Below, piece by piece: positions 2,469-25,457 of a stretch of DNA of 38,675 nucleotides. Every line of letters starts with the position of its first letter. Position 1 is the stretch's first letter. A program made the position numbers and the translations under genes. Source of the DNA: Chloroflexota bacterium (GTDB lineage Bacteria; Chloroflexota; Anaerolineae; B4-G1; SLSP01); NCBI GenBank assembly GCA_022707725.1, contig JAKJAB010000002.1, positions 1-38,675 of the forward strand. Reading direction: 5' to 3'. Below the pieces are notes generated by a model. The model was not told where the DNA came from and did not search any database. It saw nothing but the letters and a program-made list of their open reading frames with translations.

Positions 2469-3698
2469 TCAAGCTTCGGTATCTTCAGCAAAAATCGCCT
2501 GTGCCTCTGCCAGATAGGGTGCAATTTCTGCATCCGGCTTCCCCTTGGACTGTAAATAGCGTTCGAGAAGGTGTAGCGGGGTCATTGCGTCTGGTTCCAG
2601 GCCATCGAGACGATCCCGAGCAGTCCGCTCCACATCGCGGTTGATCTGCGCGAAGAAGGCTTCGGTCAGCAGCGGGGAGAGATCGGCATCCCGCAAGCGT
2701 GGCTCCTGTTCCGGTGTCATCTGCACGACCAGCCTGGCGACGGCTCCGATCAGGTCACAACCGGCGATAGCGCGCTCGATGGCACGCAGGGGATGAGCTT
2801 CGTAACGCACATCCGCGCGGATGGTGATAAAAGGGCGCGCCTGAACTTCGACATACTGCCATGTCGTCGCTCCACGCTGCACTTCGACCCAACAGAATCC
2901 TTTGGGTTGTTTCTCCTCGCCGAAGTCGACCCGCTCCAGACTGCCTGCATAAACAACCGGCGGCATATTCCCGCTGTTGAGATCTTGATGCTGGTGAATA
3001 TGCCCAAGGGCGACATAATCCCACGCCGGATCGGTCAGCGCCGACACGGGGATGGCAACATCGCGGCCGATCATGATGCTGCGCTCCGACCCCCAATGCG
3101 CGCTATCGACCGAGAAATGCCCGGTCAGTACCGCCGGTATCTGGGAATCGAGCCGCGCCGCAAAACCCGCGATCAAACTGACGACGGTCTCGCTGACAGC
3201 GCGATCCAGTGCTTCCTGGCGCATCTGGCGGAACTGCTCGCGGGTGAGCAGGCGTTGGCGTACCGGGTACGGGATCGTAGCGAGTTGTAGCGGGCCGTGA
3301 CGCGTCTCAAAACGCAGCAGGTCGGGGCGCGCAGCGACGGTCACATAAGGCACATCGAGGGTGGCGAAAATCTCGATACTGGACGCTCGTTGCTCCATCA
3401 CCGGCACGTCGTGGTTGCCCACCAGCAGCACGGTGGGAATCTCCGCCCGCGACAGGCGATGAATGCGTTGCGCAAACTCGCGCTGATGGGTGGGGTTGGG
3501 ATTGCGGGTGCGAAAGGCGTCGCCGGCGAAGAGCACCACATCGGCCGCGTGGTCGATGGCGTACGCCACAACCGTGTCCAGCCGCTCCAAAAAGTCCGCC
3601 ACGCGCCGGTTCAGACCCGATTCAGGGTCCAATCGTCCGTAGTTTTCCATGCCGATGTGCAAATCGGCGAAATGCAGGATGCGTATTGGTTCAGCCAT
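2469..3698 (-). CDS. sbcD: Mre11/SbcD-family DNA repair exonuclease (calcineurin-like metallophosphoesterase)
   Basis: From Met48 of the tracked ORF: MAEPIRILHFADLHIG...VLFAGDAFRTRNP...LLVGNHD...LTGHF...ALGHIHQHQ, the full phosphoesterase motif set of SbcD/Mre11. The start at 3698 avoids overlap with the upstream gene, which ends at 3766. Confidence 0.85.
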   Translation of the reverse strand: MAEPIRILHFADLHIGMENYGRLDPESGLNRRVADFLERLDTVVAYAIDHAADVVLFAGDAFRTRNPNPTHQREFAQRIHRLSRAEIPTVLLVGNHDVPVMEQRASSIEIFATLDVPYVTVAARPDLLRFETRHGPLQLATIPYPVRQRLLTREQFRQMRQEALDRAVSETVVSLIAGFAARLDSQIPAVLTGHFSVDSAHWGSERSIMIGRDVAIPVSALTDPAWDYVALGHIHQHQDLNSGNMPPVVYAGSLERVDFGEEKQPKGFCWVEVQRGATTWQYVEVQARPFITIRADVRYEAHPLRAIERAIAGCDLIGAVARLVVQMTPEQEPRLRDADLSPLLTEAFFAQINRDVERTARDRLDGLEPDAMTPLHLLERYLQSKGKPDAEIAPYLAEAQAIFAEDTEA

Positions 3699-3765
3699 AA
3701 AAAACCTCAAAAATGACATACATTGATGATGCGTGAAAAGCCCCACACGTATCACGTATCGCAGG

Positions 3766-5841
3766 TCACGGAAGATCAAGGACACCCCAGACACAGATTT
3801 CACCGCTGGCGGAGCCGATGAAAGCAACGCCGGAGGCATCCAATACGAGCGCGGTTATGGCCTCGTTAGTAACGCGCAGGCGATGCATAGTCAGGTTCGC
3901 GTCAACAAAAAGTAGATCGCCGGCCGTTGTCCCACCAAGGATAGGGAACTTATCTCCCCCACTTTCTCCCCCAATGGGGGGAATGTAAGGGGGGGACGTC
4001 CACAGCAAGGTCGAGAGCGTGCCGTCAAGCGCCGGTCGGCGTTGACGCACTTTTACCCCCTGCGCCAGGTTCCACAACATCCACTGCCCGGTCTCGTCAA
4101 CAGATAAGGCGTAGTCGCCCTGCGGGGCAAAGGCGATGAAGCGCACTGGCGCGCTATGGCCTTCCAACACGGCGAGTTCTGTGCCGGCGGTCAAATCCCA
4201 CAGGCGAACTACGCCATCGACGGAACCCGAAAGCGCGCGCGGCGGTGAAGGATGTGTTGCCAATGCCGTCACCGGACTCTCCGAGGCAGGCAACAGCCAC
4301 ACCAGCCCGCCAGTCTCCGGCTTCACGACCCACAGATAGCCATTCTCCAGTCCTAGCACCAGTTGCGATACGCCATCGACGTAAGCCAGCGTTTGAATAC
4401 GCGAAAAGGTTGAAACCCGACTGCGCAACACGCGCGTCCACGATGGAAACGCATACACGTACAGATCGCGCTCTTGCGCCACAGCGATTTGCCCGTCAGA
4501 GCTTGCGAGCGCAAAAACGGCAGGCGGCAGCGCATTGGCGACCCGCGTGACCTGGGCCAGCGCCGGATAACTGTGGCGTAACGTGGTCGTGGACTGTAGA
4601 GCGCGCACTTCACCGTTGACGGTATCCAGCGCTAAAACCGGCTCCGGCGCAGTCTGATAGCAGCCGAGTAGCCTGGCATTTGTGGCAAACGGCTCACCTG
4701 GTGTCGGCACAGGCGTACCGGCAGCCACCGGCCAGTAATAGGGCGTCGGCGTCAACGTCGGTGTGTTGGTGAAGGTAGGCCAAGGGGTGGGTGTTGCACC
4801 GATGGCCAGCGCCGGACGTATCGTCGTCAGCGGGGCGAAGACAGATACCGGATAGAACTGCGCGACGCTCCACAAGGCTGCCAACACCCCAACCACGACA
4901 AAAAGCTTGGCAGGCCAGCCCTCGAAAATCAACACGAGCCACGTCAGGCCGAGCGCCAGCGCCAATATCCCGCCGATCAGAAACATTGGTCCCAGCACAT
5001 GCAGCAGCGCGCGCCATGATGCGGCAAACAGTCCCAGCGTCGCAGCGGAAAAAGGTCGGCCGAACAATGCCCGGAAATCCGGTGACGGAAACACTTCCAA
5101 AATGGCCAGCAGTCCGACCACGCCAACGATCAAACCAGAAGTGAGCAAAGGCACACTGATGCAGACCCACCGCTTGCGGTCGGGCACCAGCAAAGTGGCG
5201 AAGAGTGCCAGCACCAACACCAACAACGGCGCATACCACACCCAGCGCAACCACGGCGGAGGTTCGGGCCACGCGGCGCTGAGGTTCGTTTCAGCCTCGG
5301 CAAACAGGGCGACAAGATCGGCAACATAAGCCTGCCACCATGCTTGCTGTCGCTGTCCTACAGCAGAATGTGCGCCGGGATCGACGGGGATGCAGTAGCG
5401 CGTATCAGCTCCCTCACAGGACGGCAGCGCACGCCACAGCCAATCGCGCAACAGTTCGCCTTGCGCGCCGGTCAGGTACTGTTCCACGGCGGGCGTTAAA
5501 CGCCCCGGAGGTGGCGCCTCGTCGAGCGCCCAGGCTGTCCAGGCTGGCCCCAGGCGCATCACTGCCGGCTCGACATCCACAGTCGCCAATGCTGCATCGA
5601 ACAGTGCGCGCAGCGTCTCCGGCTCGCGCGAAACCCACGGTGGCCATAGTTCAGTGGGAATTTGTCGCGGCAGATCTACAGCAAGTGCAGCGCTAGCCCG
5701 TGAAACGAAATCGCTCTCACGCAGCCAGCGCTGATAGAAAACCGGATTCAACAACGCATAGCGCGCCAGCCACGTCGTGAGCGCAAAGACACTCACCAAC
5801 GATGCGAGCAGACTCAGGAATAGCGCGATACGCAGTTTCAT
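3766..5841 (-). CDS. polytopic membrane protein with a C-terminal WD40 beta-propeller
   Basis: N-terminal half holds several hydrophobic helices, followed by a TPTPWPTFTNTPTLTPTP linker. C-terminal half has WD-like repeat ends (VRLWDL, WMLWNL, ICVWGV). Start taken at ATG 5841 (MKLRIALFLSLL); the tracked 5853 start is a TTG inside the heptamer repeat. Confidence 0.8.
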   Translation of the reverse strand: MKLRIALFLSLLASLVSVFALTTWLARYALLNPVFYQRWLRESDFVSRASAALAVDLPRQIPTELWPPWVSREPETLRALFDAALATVDVEPAVMRLGPAWTAWALDEAPPPGRLTPAVEQYLTGAQGELLRDWLWRALPSCEGADTRYCIPVDPGAHSAVGQRQQAWWQAYVADLVALFAEAETNLSAAWPEPPPWLRWVWYAPLLVLVLALFATLLVPDRKRWVCISVPLLTSGLIVGVVGLLAILEVFPSPDFRALFGRPFSAATLGLFAASWRALLHVLGPMFLIGGILALALGLTWLVLIFEGWPAKLFVVVGVLAALWSVAQFYPVSVFAPLTTIRPALAIGATPTPWPTFTNTPTLTPTPYYWPVAAGTPVPTPGEPFATNARLLGCYQTAPEPVLALDTVNGEVRALQSTTTLRHSYPALAQVTRVANALPPAVFALASSDGQIAVAQERDLYVYAFPSWTRVLRSRVSTFSRIQTLAYVDGVSQLVLGLENGYLWVVKPETGGLVWLLPASESPVTALATHPSPPRALSGSVDGVVRLWDLTAGTELAVLEGHSAPVRFIAFAPQGDYALSVDETGQWMLWNLAQGVKVRQRRPALDGTLSTLLWTSPPYIPPIGGESGGDKFPILGGTTAGDLLFVDANLTMHRLRVTNEAITALVLDASGVAFIGSASGEICVWGVLDLP

Positions 5842-5843
5842 AA

Positions 5844-5913
5844 CAAATGGCAAATGGCGAATAGTGAATCACGAATTACCTGAAGTTCGTGAAGATTCGC
5901 GTAATTCGCGGCT
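5844..5913. repeat. heptamer-word array folding into a long imperfect hairpin (dcd / WD40 intergenic)
   Basis: Read in 7-nt steps: CAAATGG CAAATGG CGAATAG TGAATCA CGAATTA, then inverted ATTCG-containing words. Pairings are GCGAAT(5857-62)/ATTCGC(5904-09), GAAT(5866-69)/ATTC(5895-98) and CACGAA(5870-75)/TTCGTG(5886-91). Confidence 0.75.
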
Positions 5914-5919
5914 AAAACG

Positions 5920-6480
5920 CTACAACCGTGGAAGTACGACGCCCTGCTGACCCTGGTATTTGCCCTTCTTGTCGGCGTAGGAAATTTCACACGGCTCGTC
6001 GCCTTCGAAAAACAACACCTGCGCGATGCCTTCATTGGCGTAGATTTTCGCCGGGAGCGGCGTCGTGTTGCTGATCTCGATGGTGATAAAGCCATGCCAA
6101 CCCGGTTCCAAAGGCGTGAAGTTCGTCACGATGCCGCAGCGCGCGTAAGTCGATTTGCCCAGGACGGCCCCTAGCACGTTGCGCGGCATGCGCATATATT
6201 CGAGGCTGCGGGCCAGGGCGAAGGAGTTGGGCGGGATGATGCAGATGTCGCCCGTGAAATCGACCATCGCGCGTATATCGATGTTCTTGGGATCGACAAC
6301 CGCCAGGTCCCCCACCCCGGAGGTGAAGACCTTGAACTCGTTGGCGACGCGGATGTCGTAGCCATACGAGGACAGGCCATAAGAGATCACGCCGTTGCGC
6401 TTTTGCCCATCGAAAAACGGATCGATCATTTGATGTTCCAACGCCATTTTACGAATCCAGTGGTCAGGTTTGAGTCCCAT
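5920..6480 (-). CDS. dcd: dCTP deaminase
   Basis: 186 aa. MGLKPDHWI...SYGYDIRV...[19 protein letters not shown]...[10 protein letters not shown]...[17 protein letters not shown] matches canonical Dcd over its full length. AAGGAG sits 5 nt upstream of the ATG. Confidence 0.95.
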
Positions 6481-6502
6481 GATAGCTCCTTGGAGATAGA
6501 CG

Positions 6503-6563
6503 GTGGACAGTAGACGGTAGACGGGAGCAAGCCCTGTCTACAGTCTACCGTCTACTGTCTACT
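6503..6563. repeat. inverted heptamer array / strong hairpin between the argS stop and the dcd start
   Basis: GTGGACA GTAGACG GTAGACG GGAGCAA GCCCTGT CTACAGT CTACCGT CTACTGT CTACTAG. Perfect 17-bp inverted repeat GACAGTAGACGGTAGAC (6506-6522) / GTCTACCGTCTACTGTC (6543-6559) with a 20-nt loop. No clear U-tract. Confidence 0.8.
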
Positions 6564-6567
6564 AGAA

Positions 6568-8286
6568 TTACATACGTTCGGGTGCGTCCATCCCCATGAG
6601 ATGCAGGGCGCGGGCGAGGACGTGCTGCGCGGCGCGGGCCAGCATCAGCCGGGCTTGGGTGAGCGCCGCATCTTCGGGCAACGTCGAAACGATGCGGCAG
6701 TCACGGTAGAAAGCATGGAACAGCGACGCCAGCTCGGTCGCGTAGAATGTCAGGTAATGCGGCGCCATGCTGTTCGCTGCCAACGTAATGACTTCGGGCA
6801 GCGCCAGCATTTTGCGGATGAGCGCCAGCTCGCTCGGATGCGTGAGCAGGGCGGGGTCGCCGGGCACGTCGAGGGCACAGCCCTCCTCGGCGGCCTTGCG
6901 CAGTACCCCGGCGATGCGCGTGTGCGCATACTGCACGTAGTAGACGGGATTACGGTCCGATTGCTCCACCGCCAGGTCGAGGTCGAAATCCAGCGTGACG
7001 TCCACGGTACGCGTGAGCATCATAAAGCGGATCGGATCCGGTCCGACTTCATCCACCAACTCGCGCAGGGTGACGAACTCGCCGGAGCTTTTGGACATAC
7101 GCACTTCCTGACCACCACGCAGCAGCGTCACCATCTGGTAGAGGATAAACACCAGCCGGTCGACATCGACACCGAGCGCTCGCGCTGCCGCCTGGACGCG
7201 CGGCACATCGCCGTGGTGATCGGCGCCCCACACGTAAATCGCCTTGTCGAAGCCGCGTTCGACGGCCTTGTTCCACAGATAGGGGATGTCCGATGCCAGA
7301 TACGTCGGGCGATCCTCCGGATCGGGAATGACTTGCGGCGAGCGGATAAGCACAGCATCCTTTTCCAGGTCAGGATGCCGGAACCAGGTGGCGCCAGCGT
7401 ATTCGATGACGTAGCCGCCGTCACGGAGCTTCGCCATCATCGCATCGAACAGCCCGCTTTCGTAGAGCGATTTCTCGCTGAACCAGCTATCGAAGTGCAC
7501 GCGTAACTGCGCCAGATCATCGCGCACGCCATCGAGAATACGAGCAATGCCCCACAGACCGAGCGCGCGGACGGCCACATCGCGTTCCTGCGTAAGATAT
7601 CGGTCTCCAAACGCCTCACGCGCGCATTGCGCCAGCTCTGTCACGTAAGCCCCGGGATAGCCCTGCTCCGGGAACGGGACGTCCAAACCAAACAGAATGG
7701 CGTAGCGGGCATAGATGCTCGCGCCGAAGTTGCGAACTTTGGAACCGGCGTCGTTGACGTAATACTCGCGTTCCACGGCATAGCCCGCAGCATCCAGCAC
7801 GGAGGCCAGCGTATCGCCGATAACGGCGTTACGCGCCGATCCAATCGTGATCGGCCCGGTGGGATTGGCGCTGACGAACTCGACCTGCGCGCGTTGGCCC
7901 GCGCCCAGAGCAACGTTCCCCCACGCTTCTCCGGCTTCAAGGATGACGGGAGCTTGCTGAGCCACCCAGTCCGTCGAAAGCGTAAAGTTGAGATAACCTG
8001 GCGGCGCGACTTCGACGTCTGCGACGAAATCAGCAGAAGGGATGTGCTGCGCGACAGCCTGTGCGATCTGCAGGGGCGCGCGGCGGAGCACTTTCGCCAG
8101 TCCCATGCACACCGGAGAAGCGTAATCGCCGTGCGCCTCGTGGCGGCTCTGATCGACGGCGATAACATCAGGAATATCGAAAGGCGGCAAAGCACCGGTA
8201 GCCTGGACATTCCGCAGTCCTGCGCGGAGGAGTTCGGCGATTTGCTCACGCAGCGGGACAGTAACAAAGGTCTGCTGATGCGTCAT
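6568..8286 (-). CDS. argS: arginine--tRNA ligase
   Basis: Full-length ArgRS architecture: VEFVSANPTGP... block, RMSKSSGEFVTL (KMSKS-like) and the YYVQYAHTRIAGVL anticodon-binding (DALR) block. Start at ATG 8286 (MTHQQ) overlaps the upstream stop as ATGA. Confidence 0.93.
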   Translation of the reverse strand: MTHQQTFVTVPLREQIAELLRAGLRNVQATGALPPFDIPDVIAVDQSRHEAHGDYASPVCMGLAKVLRRAPLQIAQAVAQHIPSADFVADVEVAPPGYLNFTLSTDWVAQQAPVILEAGEAWGNVALGAGQRAQVEFVSANPTGPITIGSARNAVIGDTLASVLDAAGYAVEREYYVNDAGSKVRNFGASIYARYAILFGLDVPFPEQGYPGAYVTELAQCAREAFGDRYLTQERDVAVRALGLWGIARILDGVRDDLAQLRVHFDSWFSEKSLYESGLFDAMMAKLRDGGYVIEYAGATWFRHPDLEKDAVLIRSPQVIPDPEDRPTYLASDIPYLWNKAVERGFDKAIYVWGADHHGDVPRVQAAARALGVDVDRLVFILYQMVTLLRGGQEVRMSKSSGEFVTLRELVDEVGPDPIRFMMLTRTVDVTLDFDLDLAVEQSDRNPVYYVQYAHTRIAGVLRKAAEEGCALDVPGDPALLTHPSELALIRKMLALPEVITLAANSMAPHYLTFYATELASLFHAFYRDCRIVSTLPEDAALTQARLMLARAAQHVLARALHLMGMDAPERM

Positions 8287-20084: not shown

Positions 20085-21311
20085 ATGACAATACATGCAA
20101 ATTCGGCAAATGAGCAGGTTAACTGGGAACACTTTTTAGCGCGACGCACGCAAAAAATGAAAGGCTCCGTCATCCGAGAACTGCTCAAGCTTACACAGCA
20201 GCCCGATGTTATTTCGTTCGGCGGTGGCATGCCGGCTCCTGAACTTTTCCCGGTGCGGGAAATTGAGGAGGCATGCAATTTTTTGCTACGTGAGTCACCT
20301 AAGTCAGTCCTGCAATACAGTACGACCGAAGGCCATCGCCCTTTGCGCGAGTACCTGGTCGACACTATGACAAAGTATAGTATTCAGTGCAGCGCGGACA
20401 ACATTCTCATCACCACGGGTTCACAACAAGCCCTGGACCTAATTGGGAAAATCTTTATCGATACGGGGACTTACGTGCTGACGGAGCGTCCTACCTACCT
20501 GGGCGCGATTCAATCGTGGCGCGCCTACGAAGCAGAATTTGTTACCGTCCCGATAGACGATCAGGGGATGCAGGTCGAGTTGCTGGAAGACACGCTCAAG
20601 GAAACGCCCATCCGGTTCATCTATGTCCTCCCCAATTTCCACAACCCGGCTGGCACCACCTTGCCAGAAGAACGCCGCCGCCTGCTGGCGGAGATTGCCC
20701 GCCAGCACGACCTTATCATCGTGGAGGACGATCCCTATGGAGCGTTGCGTTATTCAGGTGAGGACGTCATTCCCATTGCAGCCTTAGCGCCGGAACGCAC
20801 CCTCTACCTGGGGACTTTCTCCAAAACGTTGACACCAGGTCTGCGGATTGGCTGGATCGTTGCCCCCAGCGAGATCATTCACCGGTTGGTGCAGGCCAAG
20901 CAAGGGTCGGACTTACACACCAGCACCTTCGACCAGATGGTCGCCAACGACGTGGCCCAGCGTGGCATTCTGAAGGCTCACGTGCGTATGCTACGCAAGG
21001 TCTACGGCGAACGGCGCGATCTGATGCTTGATGCTCTCACTGAGTTTTGGCCTGAAGGCTCAAGTTGGACGACGCCCCAGGGGGGGCTGTTCTTGTGGGC
21101 ACGGGTTCCCAGTCCTATCGATACAGTAGCTCTCTTCCCAAAGGCAATAGAAAAGAGGGTAGCTTTCGTGCCAGGCGTGAATTTCTTCCCGTATGAAGAT
21201 GGCGGGTACGACGCGATGCGGCTCAATTTCTCCAATGCGCAACCGGAGATGATCGTTGAGGGTATCCGCCGTCTGGGCTTGACGCTCAAAGAGGAATTGG
21301 CGCACAAATAA
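20085..21311 (+). CDS. PLP-dependent aminotransferase, class I/II fold (LysN / 2-aminoadipate transaminase-like)
   Basis: From Met38 of the tracked ORF (AGGAGG RBS): ...GSVIRELLKL...ISFGGGMPAPELFP...YSTTEGHRPLREYL...ITTGSQQALDL...VLPNFHNPAGTTL...IVEDDPYGALRY...GTFSKTLTPGLRIGW (PLP lysine in SKT). Confidence 0.9.
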   Translation: MTIHANSANEQVNWEHFLARRTQKMKGSVIRELLKLTQQPDVISFGGGMPAPELFPVREIEEACNFLLRESPKSVLQYSTTEGHRPLREYLVDTMTKYSIQCSADNILITTGSQQALDLIGKIFIDTGTYVLTERPTYLGAIQSWRAYEAEFVTVPIDDQGMQVELLEDTLKETPIRFIYVLPNFHNPAGTTLPEERRRLLAEIARQHDLIIVEDDPYGALRYSGEDVIPIAALAPERTLYLGTFSKTLTPGLRIGWIVAPSEIIHRLVQAKQGSDLHTSTFDQMVANDVAQRGILKAHVRMLRKVYGERRDLMLDALTEFWPEGSSWTTPQGGLFLWARVPSPIDTVALFPKAIEKRVAFVPGVNFFPYEDGGYDAMRLNFSNAQPEMIVEGIRRLGLTLKEELAHK

Positions 21312-21348
21312 GCCCGACCATACACGAGGCCGGGCCAAGAAGCGACAA

Positions 21349-21439: not shown

Positions 21440-22891
21440 TCACCCCTTGATGACCGCCACCGGGCGCACGCGGGCCACTTTCCGCGCCAGCCCTGCACCG
21501 GCCACCGAATCCACAACGAGGCTCACGTCCTTGTAGGCATACGGCGCTTCTTCCGCCAACCCCTTCAGACTGCCGGTACGCACGACAATGCCCTGGCTTG
21601 CCAATTCCGAGCGTACATGCTCACCGCGCGCTTGCTTGAGTGCAGCGTTGCGGCTCATCATCCGCCCCGCGCCGTGACAGGTGGAGCCGAAAGTCTCATC
21701 CATCGCCGTTGACGTCCCCGCGAGCACGTAGGAGGCCGTCCCCATCGAACCGGGGACGAGCACCGGCTGTCCGATGCTGCGGTAGACGGCGGGCAGCTCG
21801 GGATGGCGGGGCGGAAACGCCCGCGTCGCCCCCTTGCGATGCACGATCACTTTCATGCGCTGCGAGCCAACCTGGTGTTCCTCGATCTTGGCGATGTTGT
21901 GCGTCACGTCGTACACCTGGGTCAGATGCCAGTTCTTCACTTTGCCCGCCATCACCTGCTCGAACGACCGGCGCACGAAATGCGCCAGGATTTGGCGATT
22001 GGCGAAGGCGTAGTTGGCCGCGGCAGACATCGCCGCCAGATACTCACGGCCCTCGCGCGAGTCCACCGGCGCGGCGACCAGCTCGCGGTCGGGGATGTCG
22101 ATGCCGTACCGGCGGGGCGCGTCCTGCAGGGCGCGGATGTACTGCCCGCACACTTCGTGGCCCAGGCCGCGTGAACCGCAGTGAATCTGTACGACGACGC
22201 GATCCTGCGCCAGTCCCATCACGTCAGCGGCCTCGGCGTCGTAGATTTCGTCCACCACGTCGATTTCGAGGAAGTGGTTGCCGGCGCCGAGCGACCCCAT
22301 CTGCGGGCGTCCGCGTTCTTTGGCGCGCGCTCCGACCGCGCCGGCCTGCGCGCCGGCAATGCGTCCCTGGCTTTCGGTGCGTTCCAGGTCGTCGCGCTGC
22401 GCGTAGCCTTTGGAAAGCGCCCACTCTGCGCCGCGCTCCAAAACGTCGTCCAGCTCCTTGTCCGAGAGCTGCACCGCGCCCTTGCCTCCCACCCCGCTCG
22501 GGCAGTTGCGGTCGATCGAAGCGATGAGGTCCTTGAGATAAGGCTCGAGCGCCGCATAGTCGATCTGCGAGGCTAGCATCCGCACGCCGCAGTTGATATC
22601 GTACCCGACACCGCCAGGGGAAATAATCCCTTCATCCCAACGGAAAGCGGCCACCCCGCCGATGGGGAAGCCGTAACCCTGATGCACGTCCGGCATCGCC
22701 ATCGCGTACTTGACGATCCCCGGCAGCATCGCCACATTCATCAACTGTGTCACGGAACTATCGCGGAACGCCGCTTCGAAGATTTCCTCGCTGCCGTAGA
22801 TGCGCGCGGGCACGCGCATCCGGCCATCGTAAGCCTGCGGCAGTTCCCACACGTAATCGTTAATCTGTTCAAAATCGCTTTTCTGCACCAT
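21440..22891 (-). CDS. rtcB: RNA-splicing ligase RtcB (3'-phosphate/5'-hydroxyl ligase)
   Basis: MVQKSDFEQINDYVWELP..., MPDVHQGYGFPIGGV, GGVGYDINCGVR, GAGNHFLEI, QIHCGSRGLGHEV, GSTCHGAGR. Start at ATG 22891 with GAGGTG upstream. Confidence 0.95.
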   Translation of the reverse strand: MVQKSDFEQINDYVWELPQAYDGRMRVPARIYGSEEIFEAAFRDSSVTQLMNVAMLPGIVKYAMAMPDVHQGYGFPIGGVAAFRWDEGIISPGGVGYDINCGVRMLASQIDYAALEPYLKDLIASIDRNCPSGVGGKGAVQLSDKELDDVLERGAEWALSKGYAQRDDLERTESQGRIAGAQAGAVGARAKERGRPQMGSLGAGNHFLEIDVVDEIYDAEAADVMGLAQDRVVVQIHCGSRGLGHEVCGQYIRALQDAPRRYGIDIPDRELVAAPVDSREGREYLAAMSAAANYAFANRQILAHFVRRSFEQVMAGKVKNWHLTQVYDVTHNIAKIEEHQVGSQRMKVIVHRKGATRAFPPRHPELPAVYRSIGQPVLVPGSMGTASYVLAGTSTAMDETFGSTCHGAGRMMSRNAALKQARGEHVRSELASQGIVVRTGSLKGLAEEAPYAYKDVSLVVDSVAGAGLARKVARVRPVAVIKG

Positions 22892-22921
22892 ATCACACCT
22901 CACTTTTTATAGTACACGGAT

Positions 22922-22982
22922 GCACACGGATTCCACGGCTAAAAACAAAAGAAAATCCGCGCGGGCCGTGAAATCCGTGTAC
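22922..22982 (-). other. strong hairpin in the archease-rtcB intergenic spacer
   Basis: GCACACGGATTCCACGGC (22922-39) pairs 16/18 with GCCGTGAAATCCGTGTAC (22965-82) around a 25-nt loop. An extra GTACACGGAT word (22912-21) offers an alternative perfect 10-bp register. Confidence 0.6.
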
Positions 22983-23010
22983 TAGATTCTTCACTCCGCG
23001 CCGGATTGTG

Positions 23011-23412
23011 CTACGTATCGAAGACGATCTCCGTCTCGTAGCCCTCCGGCGTGGCGACGACGCGTAAATCGTGGAACGTCGCCGCTTTGACGTAGCCGGT
23101 ATACGCCCGCACCGGCCCGCCGCGCAGCGTCGCCGACAATGCTGTGGGCGTCAACGCTGCAAACTCGAACGCAGTAAAAGCAAGGCCATGCACTTCGACG
23201 AAATACAACAGTTCGTTGAGCCAGTCGATCAGCAGCGTCTCCACGTCGAGCGCCGTAAGTGTCAACGTCTTTGTCTCCGGCTGCGTATCATCGACTTCCA
23301 CGAACAGCGCGAGCATCCCCTGCGCCGCCATCGTAAACAGATCGGGCAAGTCGGTGGCCCACAGATGCAGGGCCAGATCGGCGGTGTGTTCGATTTCTTG
23401 ATAGCGGCCCAT
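23011..23412 (-). CDS. archease (RtcB activator)
   Basis: 133 aa. MGRYQEIEHTADLALHLWA...LNELLY...VKAATFHDLRV... matches the archease fold signature (EHTAD, KA.T.H). Confidence 0.9.
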   Translation of the reverse strand: MGRYQEIEHTADLALHLWATDLPDLFTMAAQGMLALFVEVDDTQPETKTLTLTALDVETLLIDWLNELLYFVEVHGLAFTAFEFAALTPTALSATLRGGPVRAYTGYVKAATFHDLRVVATPEGYETEIVFDT

Positions 23413-23413
23413 A

Positions 23414-24310
23414 TCACGCCTCGCAGCGGATCACCACACGCTCGACAAAATCCGCCAACGCCATCCCGTCATCGAAAGCGAACTTGGGGACACCGCACGC
23501 CAAATCCAGCACATCCGTCACACAGGCGATGCGGTTTTCCAGGTCGGGGATCAACGCGGGGTCGCGCGCCGCTCGCACCACCTCGATTTTGGGATACGGC
23601 CCGTACTTGAAGCCCTCGATCAGCACGAGATCCACATCTCCCACACCCGCCAGCGCCGCCTCCAACGGGGGCAGTTCGGCGTAACGCCGCGTGTGGACGA
23701 TGCGATCCGGCGTGACGAAAGCGACGTGCTGCGCGCCGGCCTCCCACAAGCGGCGGGTATCCGTGCCCGGCAGGTCGGTTTCGACATCCGCGCGGACGGT
23801 ATGCTTGACCACTCCAACGCGATAGCCACGCTCCCGCAGCAACGCAATCAGCTTTTCGAGTAGCGTTGTCTTGCCGCTGTTCGAACGACCAACAAAAGAT
23901 AGTATCGGCGCTGCAGGTGATTCACCAACCATACCGTCTACCTCCAAATTTTCTGTGCTTTCCTTGAGATAACCGAGCACTTGCGTCAGAATGTCCTCTG
24001 GTGTCAATGCCGAGGTATCGATATAGAGATCACAGTGGGCGCGCGCGTGCGCCAGACGGACTTCCCGCTCCTCCACCCACCACGCGGAGGGTTGTTCCAA
24101 TCCCTCACGCCGCGCGGCAACCCCCATAGTGACATCCAGGTAGATCAACACATCGGGATTGCTGATCCGCCGCCACATCATAGGCGCGGCACAATGTTCT
24201 TGCATGATTTCTTTGACGCGATATCCAAGCGCCCGCAACGCGCGCGCTAACGTGGATTTTCCGGAGGAACAGGGGCCAACGATACCAATACGCCGCGCGT
24301 CCATCATCAT
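23414..24310 (-). CDS. two-domain P-loop protein: short N-terminal kinase-like NTPase fused to C-terminal MobB (molybdopterin-guanine dinucleotide biosynthesis adapter) domain
   Basis: N-domain has IGIVGPCSSGKSTLARAL (Walker A) and DVLIYLDV (Walker B-like). C-domain has ILSFVGRSNSGKTTLLEKLIALLRERGYRVGVVKH...DLVLIEGFK...KIEVVR...IACVTD...LADFV, collinear with E. coli MobB as I recall it. The stop lies 1 nt from the archease ATG. Confidence 0.8.
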   Translation of the reverse strand: MMMDARRIGIVGPCSSGKSTLARALRALGYRVKEIMQEHCAAPMMWRRISNPDVLIYLDVTMGVAARREGLEQPSAWWVEEREVRLAHARAHCDLYIDTSALTPEDILTQVLGYLKESTENLEVDGMVGESPAAPILSFVGRSNSGKTTLLEKLIALLRERGYRVGVVKHTVRADVETDLPGTDTRRLWEAGAQHVAFVTPDRIVHTRRYAELPPLEAALAGVGDVDLVLIEGFKYGPYPKIEVVRAARDPALIPDLENRIACVTDVLDLACGVPKFAFDDGMALADFVERVVIRCEA

Positions 24311-24325
24311 CCCAGCACTGGCGGG

Positions 24326-25036
24326 CTACAGGTCCGGGACGGGCACCTCGACGCGCATGAAACGCGGACCTTGCGGTTCGCCGGATTGCACGTGCAGCAC
24401 CAGTATGCTTGTGTCGTCCTTGGGACGCCCGTTATCCGCCGCCGTCGCCCGCTCCAACAGCCCGTCGGCGATAGCCTGCGCGGTGGGCGAGACTTGCCAG
24501 ATCGCCTCGAATGCCTGCGGGACGTCCAGCGCCGCACCAGTATTCGCGCCGGCATGGACCAGACCGTCGGTGAAGGCCAACGCAATCAGGCCTGGTTCGA
24601 GATAGAGCTGATCCACCGTAGGCCGCGTGTGTTGGTGAAAGCCCAACGGCGGAGACTCGCTCTCCAATAGCTGCAAATCGCCCGCCGGATAACGCACGTA
24701 AACGCTCGATGCGCCGCATTGCGTGATCACCAACGAACCGCTATCGAGGTCCACCGACAGGATAACCAACGTCGCCGACACCTTGCCACGTCTGTGCTCG
24801 TAGAGCATATCGTTGGCCGCGCGTGCCGCCGCGCCATCACGCACGCCTTCGGCCAACTCGGAGACCACTTTACGGACCACACGGATGCTGATGGCTTTGG
24901 CCGCCTCGCCGGAGCTTTGTCCATCGGCCAGCACAAAGGAGATGCCGCCGCGCGGGCGCTCGATCATTTCCAGCGTGTCCCCGCTCTCGCGCACTGCCCA
25001 TTTGTTGATCTTGCTCGCGGCAACAGAAAGATGCAT
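24326..25036 (-). CDS. stand-alone PPM/PP2C (SpoIIE-type) protein phosphatase
   Basis: 236 aa. ESGDT...FVLADGQSSGEAAKAIS...FTDGLVHAG...KDDTSILVLHV gives the metal-binding Asp motifs of SpoIIE/RsbU-type phosphatases. GAGGAG RBS. Confidence 0.85.
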   Translation of the reverse strand: MHLSVAASKINKWAVRESGDTLEMIERPRGGISFVLADGQSSGEAAKAISIRVVRKVVSELAEGVRDGAAARAANDMLYEHRRGKVSATLVILSVDLDSGSLVITQCGASSVYVRYPAGDLQLLESESPPLGFHQHTRPTVDQLYLEPGLIALAFTDGLVHAGANTGAALDVPQAFEAIWQVSPTAQAIADGLLERATAADNGRPKDDTSILVLHVQSGEPQGPRFMRVEVPVPDL

Positions 25037-25048
25037 CGCGGACTCCTC

Positions 25049-25333
25049 TTATGCGTGCTCGGCCTCACGTGGAACGTACTTGCCGCCGATCGCGCTCGGT
25101 AGGATATCCACCTCGACACCCTCGGCCAAACGAATGCGAGCGATATTCGCCTCACGATCGTAGCGGGTCAACGTCCCGATAAAGCCGCCGATGGTGACCA
25201 CGCGATCGCCGGCGGTCAGTTCGCGCTCCTGTTGCTGGCGGCGCCGTCGCGCCATCCACTGCGGCACATAGAGGAAAACGACGATCAACATCATCATCAC
25301 AATCCAAAACAGCCAATCTACACCCTGTCCCAT
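25049..25333 (-). CDS. yajC: preprotein translocase subunit YajC
   Basis: 94 aa from the internal Met of the tracked ORF: one TM (WLFWIVMMMLIVVFLYV), basic stretch RRRRQQQ, and LTAGDRVVTIGGFIGTL...ARIRL. AGGAG lies 6 nt upstream of ATG 25333. Confidence 0.85.
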   Translation of the reverse strand: MGQGVDWLFWIVMMMLIVVFLYVPQWMARRRRQQQERELTAGDRVVTIGGFIGTLTRYDREANIARIRLAEGVEVDILPSAIGGKYVPREAEHA

Positions 25334-25457
25334 ACCGCGCTCCTGACTGACAATGTTACGCTCAAATACTGACTGAACGGTTATACCTCGATTATACCCG
25401 CAAGGTGAAAGAAGGACAAGAGCCAGTCTAACGGCTTCGTTCGGCATCCTCAGCGGC

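Follow-up and report, generated by a model that had tools for sequence, protein, structure and literature searches.

A conserved gene cluster joining a MobB-family protein, a PP2C phosphatase, and a small P-loop protein to archease and the RNA ligase RtcB in Anaerolineae

We analyzed a stretch of 38,675 nucleotides (nt) from a Chloroflexota bacterium of the class Anaerolineae (assembly GCA_022707725.1, contig JAKJAB010000002.1; referred to as the window), in which the gene for the RNA ligase RtcB lies behind those for its partner archease and for a MobB-family GTP-binding protein. The open reading frame (ORF) list, combined with Pfam and NCBIfam searches, revealed five co-directional genes on the minus strand: yajC, a stand-alone phosphatase of the PP2C/SpoIIE family, a fusion of a small P-loop domain with a MobB domain, archease, and rtcB (Table 1). 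The intergenic gaps are 12 nt (yajC/PP2C), 15 nt (PP2C/fusion), and 1 nt (fusion/archease), and archease is separated from rtcB by 119 nt when the ligase is read from the ATG at 22891, or by 107 nt from an upstream GTG. Both this layout and the family assignments of the five genes agree with a preliminary description of the locus made from its letters alone. Within the cluster, the minus strand gave no call for a promoter-like or terminator-like site, which, with the short gaps, speaks for co-transcription, and the separate promoter or terminator that, according to that description, might isolate archease and rtcB from the upstream genes was not detected. The terminator-like hairpin downstream of rtcB sits between the convergent rtcB and aminotransferase genes.

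The RtcB protein of the window is full length, its PF01139 match covering profile positions 1 to 426, and it aligns end to end with Pyrococcus horikoshii RtcB (1uc2, E = 1.2e-176), against which the catalytic motifs DINCG, GNHF, HxGSRGLGH, HN(I), and CHGAGR are intact. The metal-binding and guanylylated-His positions of the P. horikoshii enzyme (D95, C98, N202/H203, H234, H329, and H404) fall in identical motifs of the window protein. The ATG at 22891 has a ribosome-binding site (RBS; GAGGTG) and yields a product of 483 amino acids (aa), the size found in relatives. The ligase is of the archaeal/eukaryal (Pyrococcus) type. Archease is likewise complete, with a match to profile positions 1 to 135 of the 136 in PF01951, and aligns with P. 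horikoshii archease (4n2p, 2.4e-9), including the EHTAD and KAxTxH (VKAATFHD) motifs. RtcB forms a His-GMP adduct in a GTP- and Mn-dependent reaction and then joins 3'-phosphate or 2',3'-cyclic phosphate ends to 5'-OH ends, and archease speeds the guanylylation step (PMC3973293). Pfam scans of the 30 predicted window proteins (positions 30 to 32511) found no RtcA, no RtcR, and no molybdenum-cofactor protein; the absence of rtcA and rtcR beside rtcB had already been noted in the preliminary description.

The MobB domain occupies aa 136 to 266 of the fusion protein (PF03205, E = 1.7e-38, 131.9 bits against a cutoff of 26.6; TIGR00176, 128.3 bits against a cutoff of 76.2), and the window MobB aligns over its full length with Escherichia coli MobB (1np6, 6e-17) and retains the Walker A, KH, DxPGxD, Walker B/EGxK, and KxExxR motifs. 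In a neighbor-joining tree of 163 MobBs, the 15 that are linked to archease formed an exclusive clade with the diagnostic residues T171, W189, D202, R209, and R260; W189 occurs in 0% of the unlinked MobBs, and canonical MobBs carry Arg at this position. We compared these with 88 unlinked MobBs having adequate flanks (at least 1.5 kb on each side), near which no match to archease, RtcB, the small P-loop protein, or yajC was found, nor any close PP2C, the single PP2C match being 27% identical and about 6 kb away (locus L099). No molybdenum-cofactor gene was located within 6 to 8 kb of any linked MobB for which a gene table was returned, whereas MoeA adjoins the canonical MobB at L014 and MobA does so at L043; in this comparison, clear molybdenum-cofactor neighbors were seen in two of five control loci, with crude ORF picks from GC-rich genomes. 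The scan of the genome collection with the MobB alignment gave, among the matches listed, proteobacterial MobBs with one clade member (L008), the rest serving as negative controls, and the metagenome scan gave, among the matches listed, three clade members together with 77 control MobBs. Besides, MobB and archease are joined in a single polypeptide (PF03205 plus PF01951) in proteins P0051, P0059, P0069, P0077, P0079, P0085, and P0241, which show at least two types of linker.

The arrangement recurs in at least 12 distinct related contigs, with MobB identities of 49 to 90%, and is more than a chance one. The full block of PP2C, small P-loop protein, MobB, archease, and RtcB was found at L001, L002 (with MobB and archease fused), L004/5, L008 (a Thermoflexia metagenome-assembled genome [MAG]), L088, L090, L168, L169, L170, L172, and L174. 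The trio of MobB, archease, and RtcB occurs on its own at L007, where the flanks are unrelated (an ECF transporter and type III CRISPR genes) and the MobB and archease frames overlap by 23 nt, and again at L089, where the ~700 nt upstream held no PP2C or P-loop match. Conversely, PP2C and the small P-loop gene occur without MobB, archease, and RtcB at L171 and L173. The cluster thus falls into two modules that can occur apart but mostly stand together in the Anaerolineae/Thermoflexia lineage. The context upstream of the block varies (yajC, a histidine kinase, or a Metallophos gene), while the block itself stays intact; yajC stands beside PP2C in nine related loci but is absent from L169, L170, L171, and L173, and it is probably incidental, a passenger that heads the transcription unit. 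Among the best 120 matches of each list, MobB and the small P-loop protein shared 22 contigs, MobB and PP2C 14, and the small P-loop protein and PP2C 16; contigs were matched by size and only from 5 kb upward, so that these counts give indirect support for a wider co-occurrence. Conservation outside the source genome, on which the preliminary description had made its proposal depend, is therefore seen in many Anaerolineae/Thermoflexia contigs.

Table 1. Features of the MobB-archease-RtcB cluster and its borders in the window
Feature	Position	Strand	Basis
Candidate sigma-70-like promoter 5' of yajC (TTGTCC, 17 nt, TATAAT)	25391..25419	-	10/12 consensus matches; consensus match only
yajC, 94 aa, first gene of the run	25049..25333	-	PF02699, 1.9e-13
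PP2C/SpoIIE-family phosphatase, stand-alone, 236 aa	24326..25036	-	PF07228, 6e-26
P-loop+MobB fusion, 298 aa	23414..24310	-	MobB PF03205 and a second Walker A at aa 12-19
N-terminal P-loop domain of the fusion, ~125 aa	23936..24310	-	Homologue alignment, AlphaFold2 model
Ancestral MobB start inside the fusion ORF: GGAGG 23941-23945, ATG (Met127) 23930-23932	23930..23945	-	Direct sequence reading
MobB-family GTP-binding domain, aa 130-298 of the fusion	23414..23923	-	PF03205, TIGR00176
Archease, 133 aa, start 1 nt after the MobB stop	23011..23412	-	PF01951, 1.3e-30
Hairpin with 18-bp stem in the archease-rtcB spacer	22924..22980	-	Fold -48.1 kcal/mol, z = -3.0; arms by pattern search
RtcB RNA ligase, 483 aa from ATG 22891 (longest ORF 21440-22903)	21440..22891	-	PF01139, 8.6e-174
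Terminator-like hairpin 3' of rtcB	21311..21336	-	9-bp stem, 7 GC pairs, weak T run; consensus match only

The small P-loop domain at the N terminus of the fusion has 1017 homologues, the best 120 of which are stand-alone proteins of 105 to 149 aa, mostly annotated as hypothetical; in most relatives of the cluster, it is encoded by a separate gene with a product of ~115 to 128 aa. Across 121 sequences, 22 positions are invariant, and the invariant motifs are GPCSSGK(S), QEH, W46, LIYLD (D59), R68-E69, WW, E81, R85, and ER..RL.HAR.H. A single-sequence AlphaFold prediction of the whole fusion reached a predicted local distance difference test score (pLDDT) of 39.8 and was not used; in its place we took an alignment-based AlphaFold2 model of the N-domain (pLDDT, 84.9). 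The fold matches of this model were the N-domains of RapZ and Rv1421, shikimate kinases, and guanylate, CMP, and thymidylate kinases (E of ~1e-4; template modeling [TM] scores of 0.6 to 0.7), with dephospho-CoA kinases and receiver domains further among the top 50 PDB matches and no Pnk or Clp1 among them. Profile and sequence searches of the PDB with the small P-loop family gave P-loop-level or weak cytidylate-kinase similarity, and no Pnk/Clp1-type kinase appeared in the profile search. In Pfam, there was a borderline match to AAA_18 and a sub-threshold, partial match to CPT, and no family cutoff was otherwise reached. The domain has a Walker A motif, a Walker-B-like Asp after a hydrophobic strand, and an alpha/beta fold, as expected of the P-loop kinase superfamily. 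It is a minimal kinase-fold P-loop protein and falls outside both the ordinary annotated nucleotide kinases and the polynucleotide kinases. To the question raised in the preliminary description, whether the domain is Clp1/PNK-like, the model answers with a fold of the RapZ, shikimate kinase, and nucleoside monophosphate (NMP) kinase kind, and the opposite concern voiced there, an ordinary kinase of nucleotide metabolism, is not clearly borne out either.

How the double P-loop protein arose can be read from its relatives. At L004, which is 88% identical, the P-loop gene ends in a TGA that precedes the ATG of a distinct MobB gene by 5 nt, while the frame of the window reads through this junction and retains the old GGAGG and ATG of MobB. 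Among the matches of the fusion-protein search, only P0001 (99%) and P0003 (56%) were full-length P-loop+MobB fusions, most relatives being stand-alone MobBs of ~170 aa from Anaerolineae MAGs, and the fusion of L001/P0003 is an independent one with a different, longer linker. The window protein is thus a recent, lineage-specific stop-loss fusion of two neighboring genes, and its ORF may still give free MobB by internal initiation. As regards the preliminary description, which had asked whether rtcB and archease co-occur with PP2C and a MobB fusion, the fusion and its MobB domain are real and the block is conserved, but the P-loop and MobB parts are separate genes in most relatives.

The PP2C protein matches PF07228 (6.2e-26) over profile positions 2 to 191 of 192, and its metal-binding Asp motifs (SGD, DGQ, TDG, and DD) are intact when aligned with 3pu9 and with SpoIIE (3t91/5mqh). 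Its match to 3pu9 extends over the whole length (1.4e-48); this entry is a structural-genomics "protein serine/threonine phosphatase" without a described function, which means that a structure already exists for the uncharacterized PP2C subfamily. The family is length-conserved in Anaerolineae/Thermoflexia. Together with the small P-loop protein, it defines a widespread, uncharacterized gene pair of Chloroflexota (a 236-aa PP2C and a ~120-aa kinase-fold P-loop protein), perhaps an add-on to the ligase genes with a regulatory role. At L173 (2359 to 7093), the pair is flanked by genes for a Hanks-type protein kinase, an FHA/Trans_reg_C regulator, and a Macro-domain protein, neighbors that hint at a signaling context, and a TrkA-like gene lies between the PP2C and small P-loop genes. 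A Metallophos gene is found just upstream of PP2C at L170.

The spacer between archease and rtcB (22892 to 23010) holds a hairpin with no U-tract directly after it. In L088, the closest relative, the two genes are 8 nt apart and the RBS of rtcB overlaps the archease stop codon; L089, L008, and L172 are also without an insert. Elsewhere the spacers of relatives contain unrelated hairpins (L004, z = -3.0; L168, z = -6.7), weaker hairpins, tandem repeats (heptamers at L090), or short gaps, and L002, L007, and L169 have spacers as well. A conserved regulatory RNA was considered for the hairpin and ruled out, relatives having unrelated hairpins, repeats, or no spacer, and an Rfam scan of the cluster region returned no matches. 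The ancestral junction TGAGGTG.GA.ATGG is still readable at the 3' end of the insert in the window and at L004. Given that relatives have no spacer here or an unrelated one, the spacer is a hot spot for lineage-specific insertions that marks no conserved boundary, and archease and rtcB were ancestrally tightly coupled.

Several observations concern single members of the cluster. At L170, a gene for a 181-aa DNA_binding_1 protein (O6-alkylguanine-DNA alkyltransferase-like; 6955 to 7500) lies between archease and RtcB. At L088, a co-directional gene (4825 to 6978) between the small P-loop gene and MobB encodes a likely coiled-coil protein of 717 aa with a high content of Ala, Glu, and Arg. In a single case (L007, 2173 to 7259), the trio is within ~750 bp of a divergent type III CRISPR-like cluster that encodes Cas6 and a 1074-aa RAMP protein. 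Archease is elsewhere fused to flavin enzymes, as in P0274 (456 aa) and P0336 (340 aa), with the domain combinations FAD_syn+Flavokinase+Archease and Flavokinase+Archease. These fusions with flavin adenine dinucleotide (FAD) synthetase and riboflavin kinase are an unexpected tie of archease to flavin nucleotide synthesis, and they may be of interest given that the flavoprotein PYROXD1 protects human RTCB.

Outside the cluster, the window carries ordinary chromosomal genes, such as those for ArgRS, dCTP deaminase, a sortase, sugar transferases, a T2SSE ATPase, an ADP-forming acetyl-CoA synthetase, and a CitMHS transporter. No tRNAs were found in the window. Among the PADLOC defense models, the sole match was a weak, P-loop-level one to mad8, and a defense-system reading is thereby unsupported. 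The longest ORF for a 695-aa WD40-repeat protein (3766 to 5853) shares ~70 nt with the beginning of the gene for a calcineurin-like phosphoesterase of 456 aa on the same strand (2469 to 3839), which is probably due to over-extension of the start of a TTG-initiated ORF.

The exclusive clade, the overlap or near-overlap of the reading frames, the recurrent fusion, the persistence of the trio in foreign flanks, and the lack of molybdenum-cofactor neighbors together suggest that this MobB works with archease and RtcB. We consider it about an even call that the cluster is a lineage-specific RtcB-archease RNA-ligation operon, in which a first module of MobB, archease, and RtcB is accompanied by a second of PP2C and the P-loop protein, and in which MobB takes part in RtcB activation. 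The dedicated MobB paralogue would act with archease, physically or functionally coupled to it and to RtcB, at the GTP-dependent activation of the ligase. At the guanylylation step, it might bind and present GTP, or it might serve as an NTP-dependent loading or recycling factor. Canonical MobB is a proposed helper of the GMP-transferring enzyme MobA, and the role of MobB toward archease would parallel this one. The PP2C/P-loop pair, encoded upstream of the first module, would most likely contribute regulation that depends on phosphorylation or on nucleotides, and not the healing of RNA ends. The preliminary description had hypothesized an expanded or regulated RNA repair module with phospho-regulation or GTP supply to RtcB; the tie of MobB to archease and RtcB through clade, fusions, and trio makes the GTP part reasonable, whereas the end-healing part does not stand. 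As a bolder and quite tentative version, the linked MobB clade could be a hitherto unrecognized third component of the RtcB system, a GTP-binding factor docking on archease (to which it is fused in some species) and loading or gating the GTP for RtcB guanylylation, with the PP2C/P-loop pair as a phospho- or nucleotide-dependent switch.

Several points weigh against a role of MobB in ligation and would fit neutral synteny instead, in which an ordinary molybdenum-cofactor MobB and unrelated housekeeping genes for PP2C and the P-loop protein adjoin archease and rtcB by an accident that became fixed in an Anaerolineae ancestor and was passed on, and the fusions are by-products of short gaps. The related loci all come from one bacterial class, and most of them share flanking synteny too (a convergent aminotransferase and glycosyltransferases), so that part of the conservation may reflect inheritance rather than selection. 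The canonical MobB motifs are all kept and are common to the linked clade and the 88 other MobBs, as would suit an ordinary or dual role in molybdenum-cofactor synthesis. MobB-archease fusions are rare, amounting in an exhaustive search to two clusters at 50% identity (P0051 and P0241), and genes spaced this tightly are readily joined by loss of a stop codon, whether or not they are functionally coupled. However, the trio persists at L007 with wholly different flanks, and the block stays intact where yajC gives way to a histidine kinase or Metallophos gene. Besides, the linked MobBs share their diagnostic residues within a clade of their own, both the P-loop-MobB and the MobB-archease junction have repeatedly given rise to fusions, whose linkers differ, and molybdenum-cofactor genes are missing nearby, in contrast to the MoeA and MobA genes beside canonical MobBs. 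We regard synteny by accident as unlikely.

It is also conceivable, although we think it doubtful, that the P-loop protein, acting as a protein kinase or as a nucleotide-bound partner, and PP2C control RNA ligation under stress through reversible modification of MobB, archease, or RtcB, an idea compatible with the operon reading given above and additional to it. At least 12 loci have the pair beside the trio, fusion of the P-loop protein to MobB took place independently, and with different linkers, in the lineage of the window and P0001 and in L001/P0003, PP2C retains intact catalytic motifs, and the P-loop family is strongly conserved at its 22 invariant positions. On the other hand, the pair is found in unrelated contexts as well and perhaps has other or more general targets, the gene for the 717-aa protein parts the P-loop gene from MobB at L088, and we know of no protein kinase in the small P-loop family. 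A heal-and-seal cassette, with the P-loop protein as polynucleotide kinase and PP2C as RNA end phosphatase preparing ends for RtcB in analogy to T4 Pnkp/Rnl and Pnkp/Hen1, is highly improbable: a kinase-fold P-loop gene and a phosphatase gene do lie directly upstream of ligase genes in at least 12 loci, with the P-loop protein fused to MobB in two lineages and a Metallophos gene just upstream of PP2C at L170, but the proteins are of the wrong families (the P-loop fold is nearest to the RapZ N-domain and to shikimate, guanylate, CMP, and thymidylate kinases, with no Pnk or Clp1 in the top 50, and PP2C/SpoIIE proteins are protein Ser/Thr phosphatases, the closest solved relative being annotated so), a 5'-kinase and a 3'-phosphatase would destroy the 3'-phosphate or 2',3'-cyclic phosphate and 5'-OH ends that RtcB needs, and the pair occurs without RtcB (L171 and L173) as does RtcB-archease-MobB without the pair (L007).

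The module of MobB, archease, and RtcB with its PP2C/P-loop pair is conserved and apparently undescribed. In the literature searched, which did not cover the RNA-repair survey of Burroughs & Aravind 2016, we found no paper mentioning both archease and MobB and no relevant paper combining RtcB and MobB; the CoCoNuT paper does not describe the arrangement of the window. Control of the GTP-dependent activation of RtcB is an active research question, and the linked MobB clade offers a hypothesis that is cheap to test, namely, a GTP-binding helper in RtcB guanylylation, for which the natural MobB-archease fusions would suit structural work. To our knowledge, MobB has been without a firm biochemical role for decades. 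Should the bolder version with a third RtcB component hold, a MobB-family protein would for the first time have a defined biochemical task beyond the synthesis of the molybdenum cofactor.

Among known systems, the cluster is closest in its core to the RtcB-archease "tRNA splicing" operons that Desai et al. 2014 (PMC3973293) describe from archaea and diverse bacteria, in which rtcB and archease are at times accompanied by a tRNA m5C methyltransferase gene but not by MobB. It resembles them in its P. horikoshii-type RtcB and in archease lying immediately upstream in the same orientation, and it differs by the addition of the PP2C/P-loop pair and of a MobB coupled to archease (a 1-nt gap in the window, overlap or fusion in relatives). 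With the MobB of the E. coli mobAB pathway (1np6/1p9n), the linked proteins share a full-length MobB domain and all canonical motifs, whereas they have no molybdenum-cofactor genes nearby, are always beside archease and RtcB, carry W189 in place of Arg, and are in some cases fused to archease or to the small P-loop protein.

The T4 Pnkp/Rnl1 and Pnkp/Hen1 systems resemble the cluster in combining genes for a kinase-fold P-loop protein, a phosphatase, and an RNA ligase. In those systems, however, the phosphatase is a DxDxT or calcineurin-type phosphoesterase rather than a PP2C, and the ligase is an ATP-dependent Rnl that uses 5'-phosphate/3'-OH ends rather than an RtcB acting on 3'-phosphate/5'-OH ends. 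The E. coli rtcBA/RtcR system similarly places an RtcB-family ligase in a stress- or repair-type operon, but neither the RtcA cyclase nor the sigma-54 activator RtcR is present among the 30 scanned window proteins, and the window ligase is of the long archaeal form and partnered with archease. The small P-loop protein shares its fold with the RapZ N-domain, Rv1421, and shikimate and NMP kinases, and its Walker A and C-terminal "DTS" segment resemble those of cytidylate kinase, although it is only ~120 aa long, has no recognizable NMP-binding or LID inserts, is at most 22% identical to them, and has invariant motifs of its own. Finally, the G3E-type chaperones (MeaB, HypB, UreG, and CobW) offer an analogy only, as small SIMIBI-class NTPases encoded beside or fused with the partner they serve; the window MobB shares with them similarity at the level of Walker A alone and lacks the CxCC metal motif, while its position beside archease, and its fusion to it in relatives, follow the same pattern.

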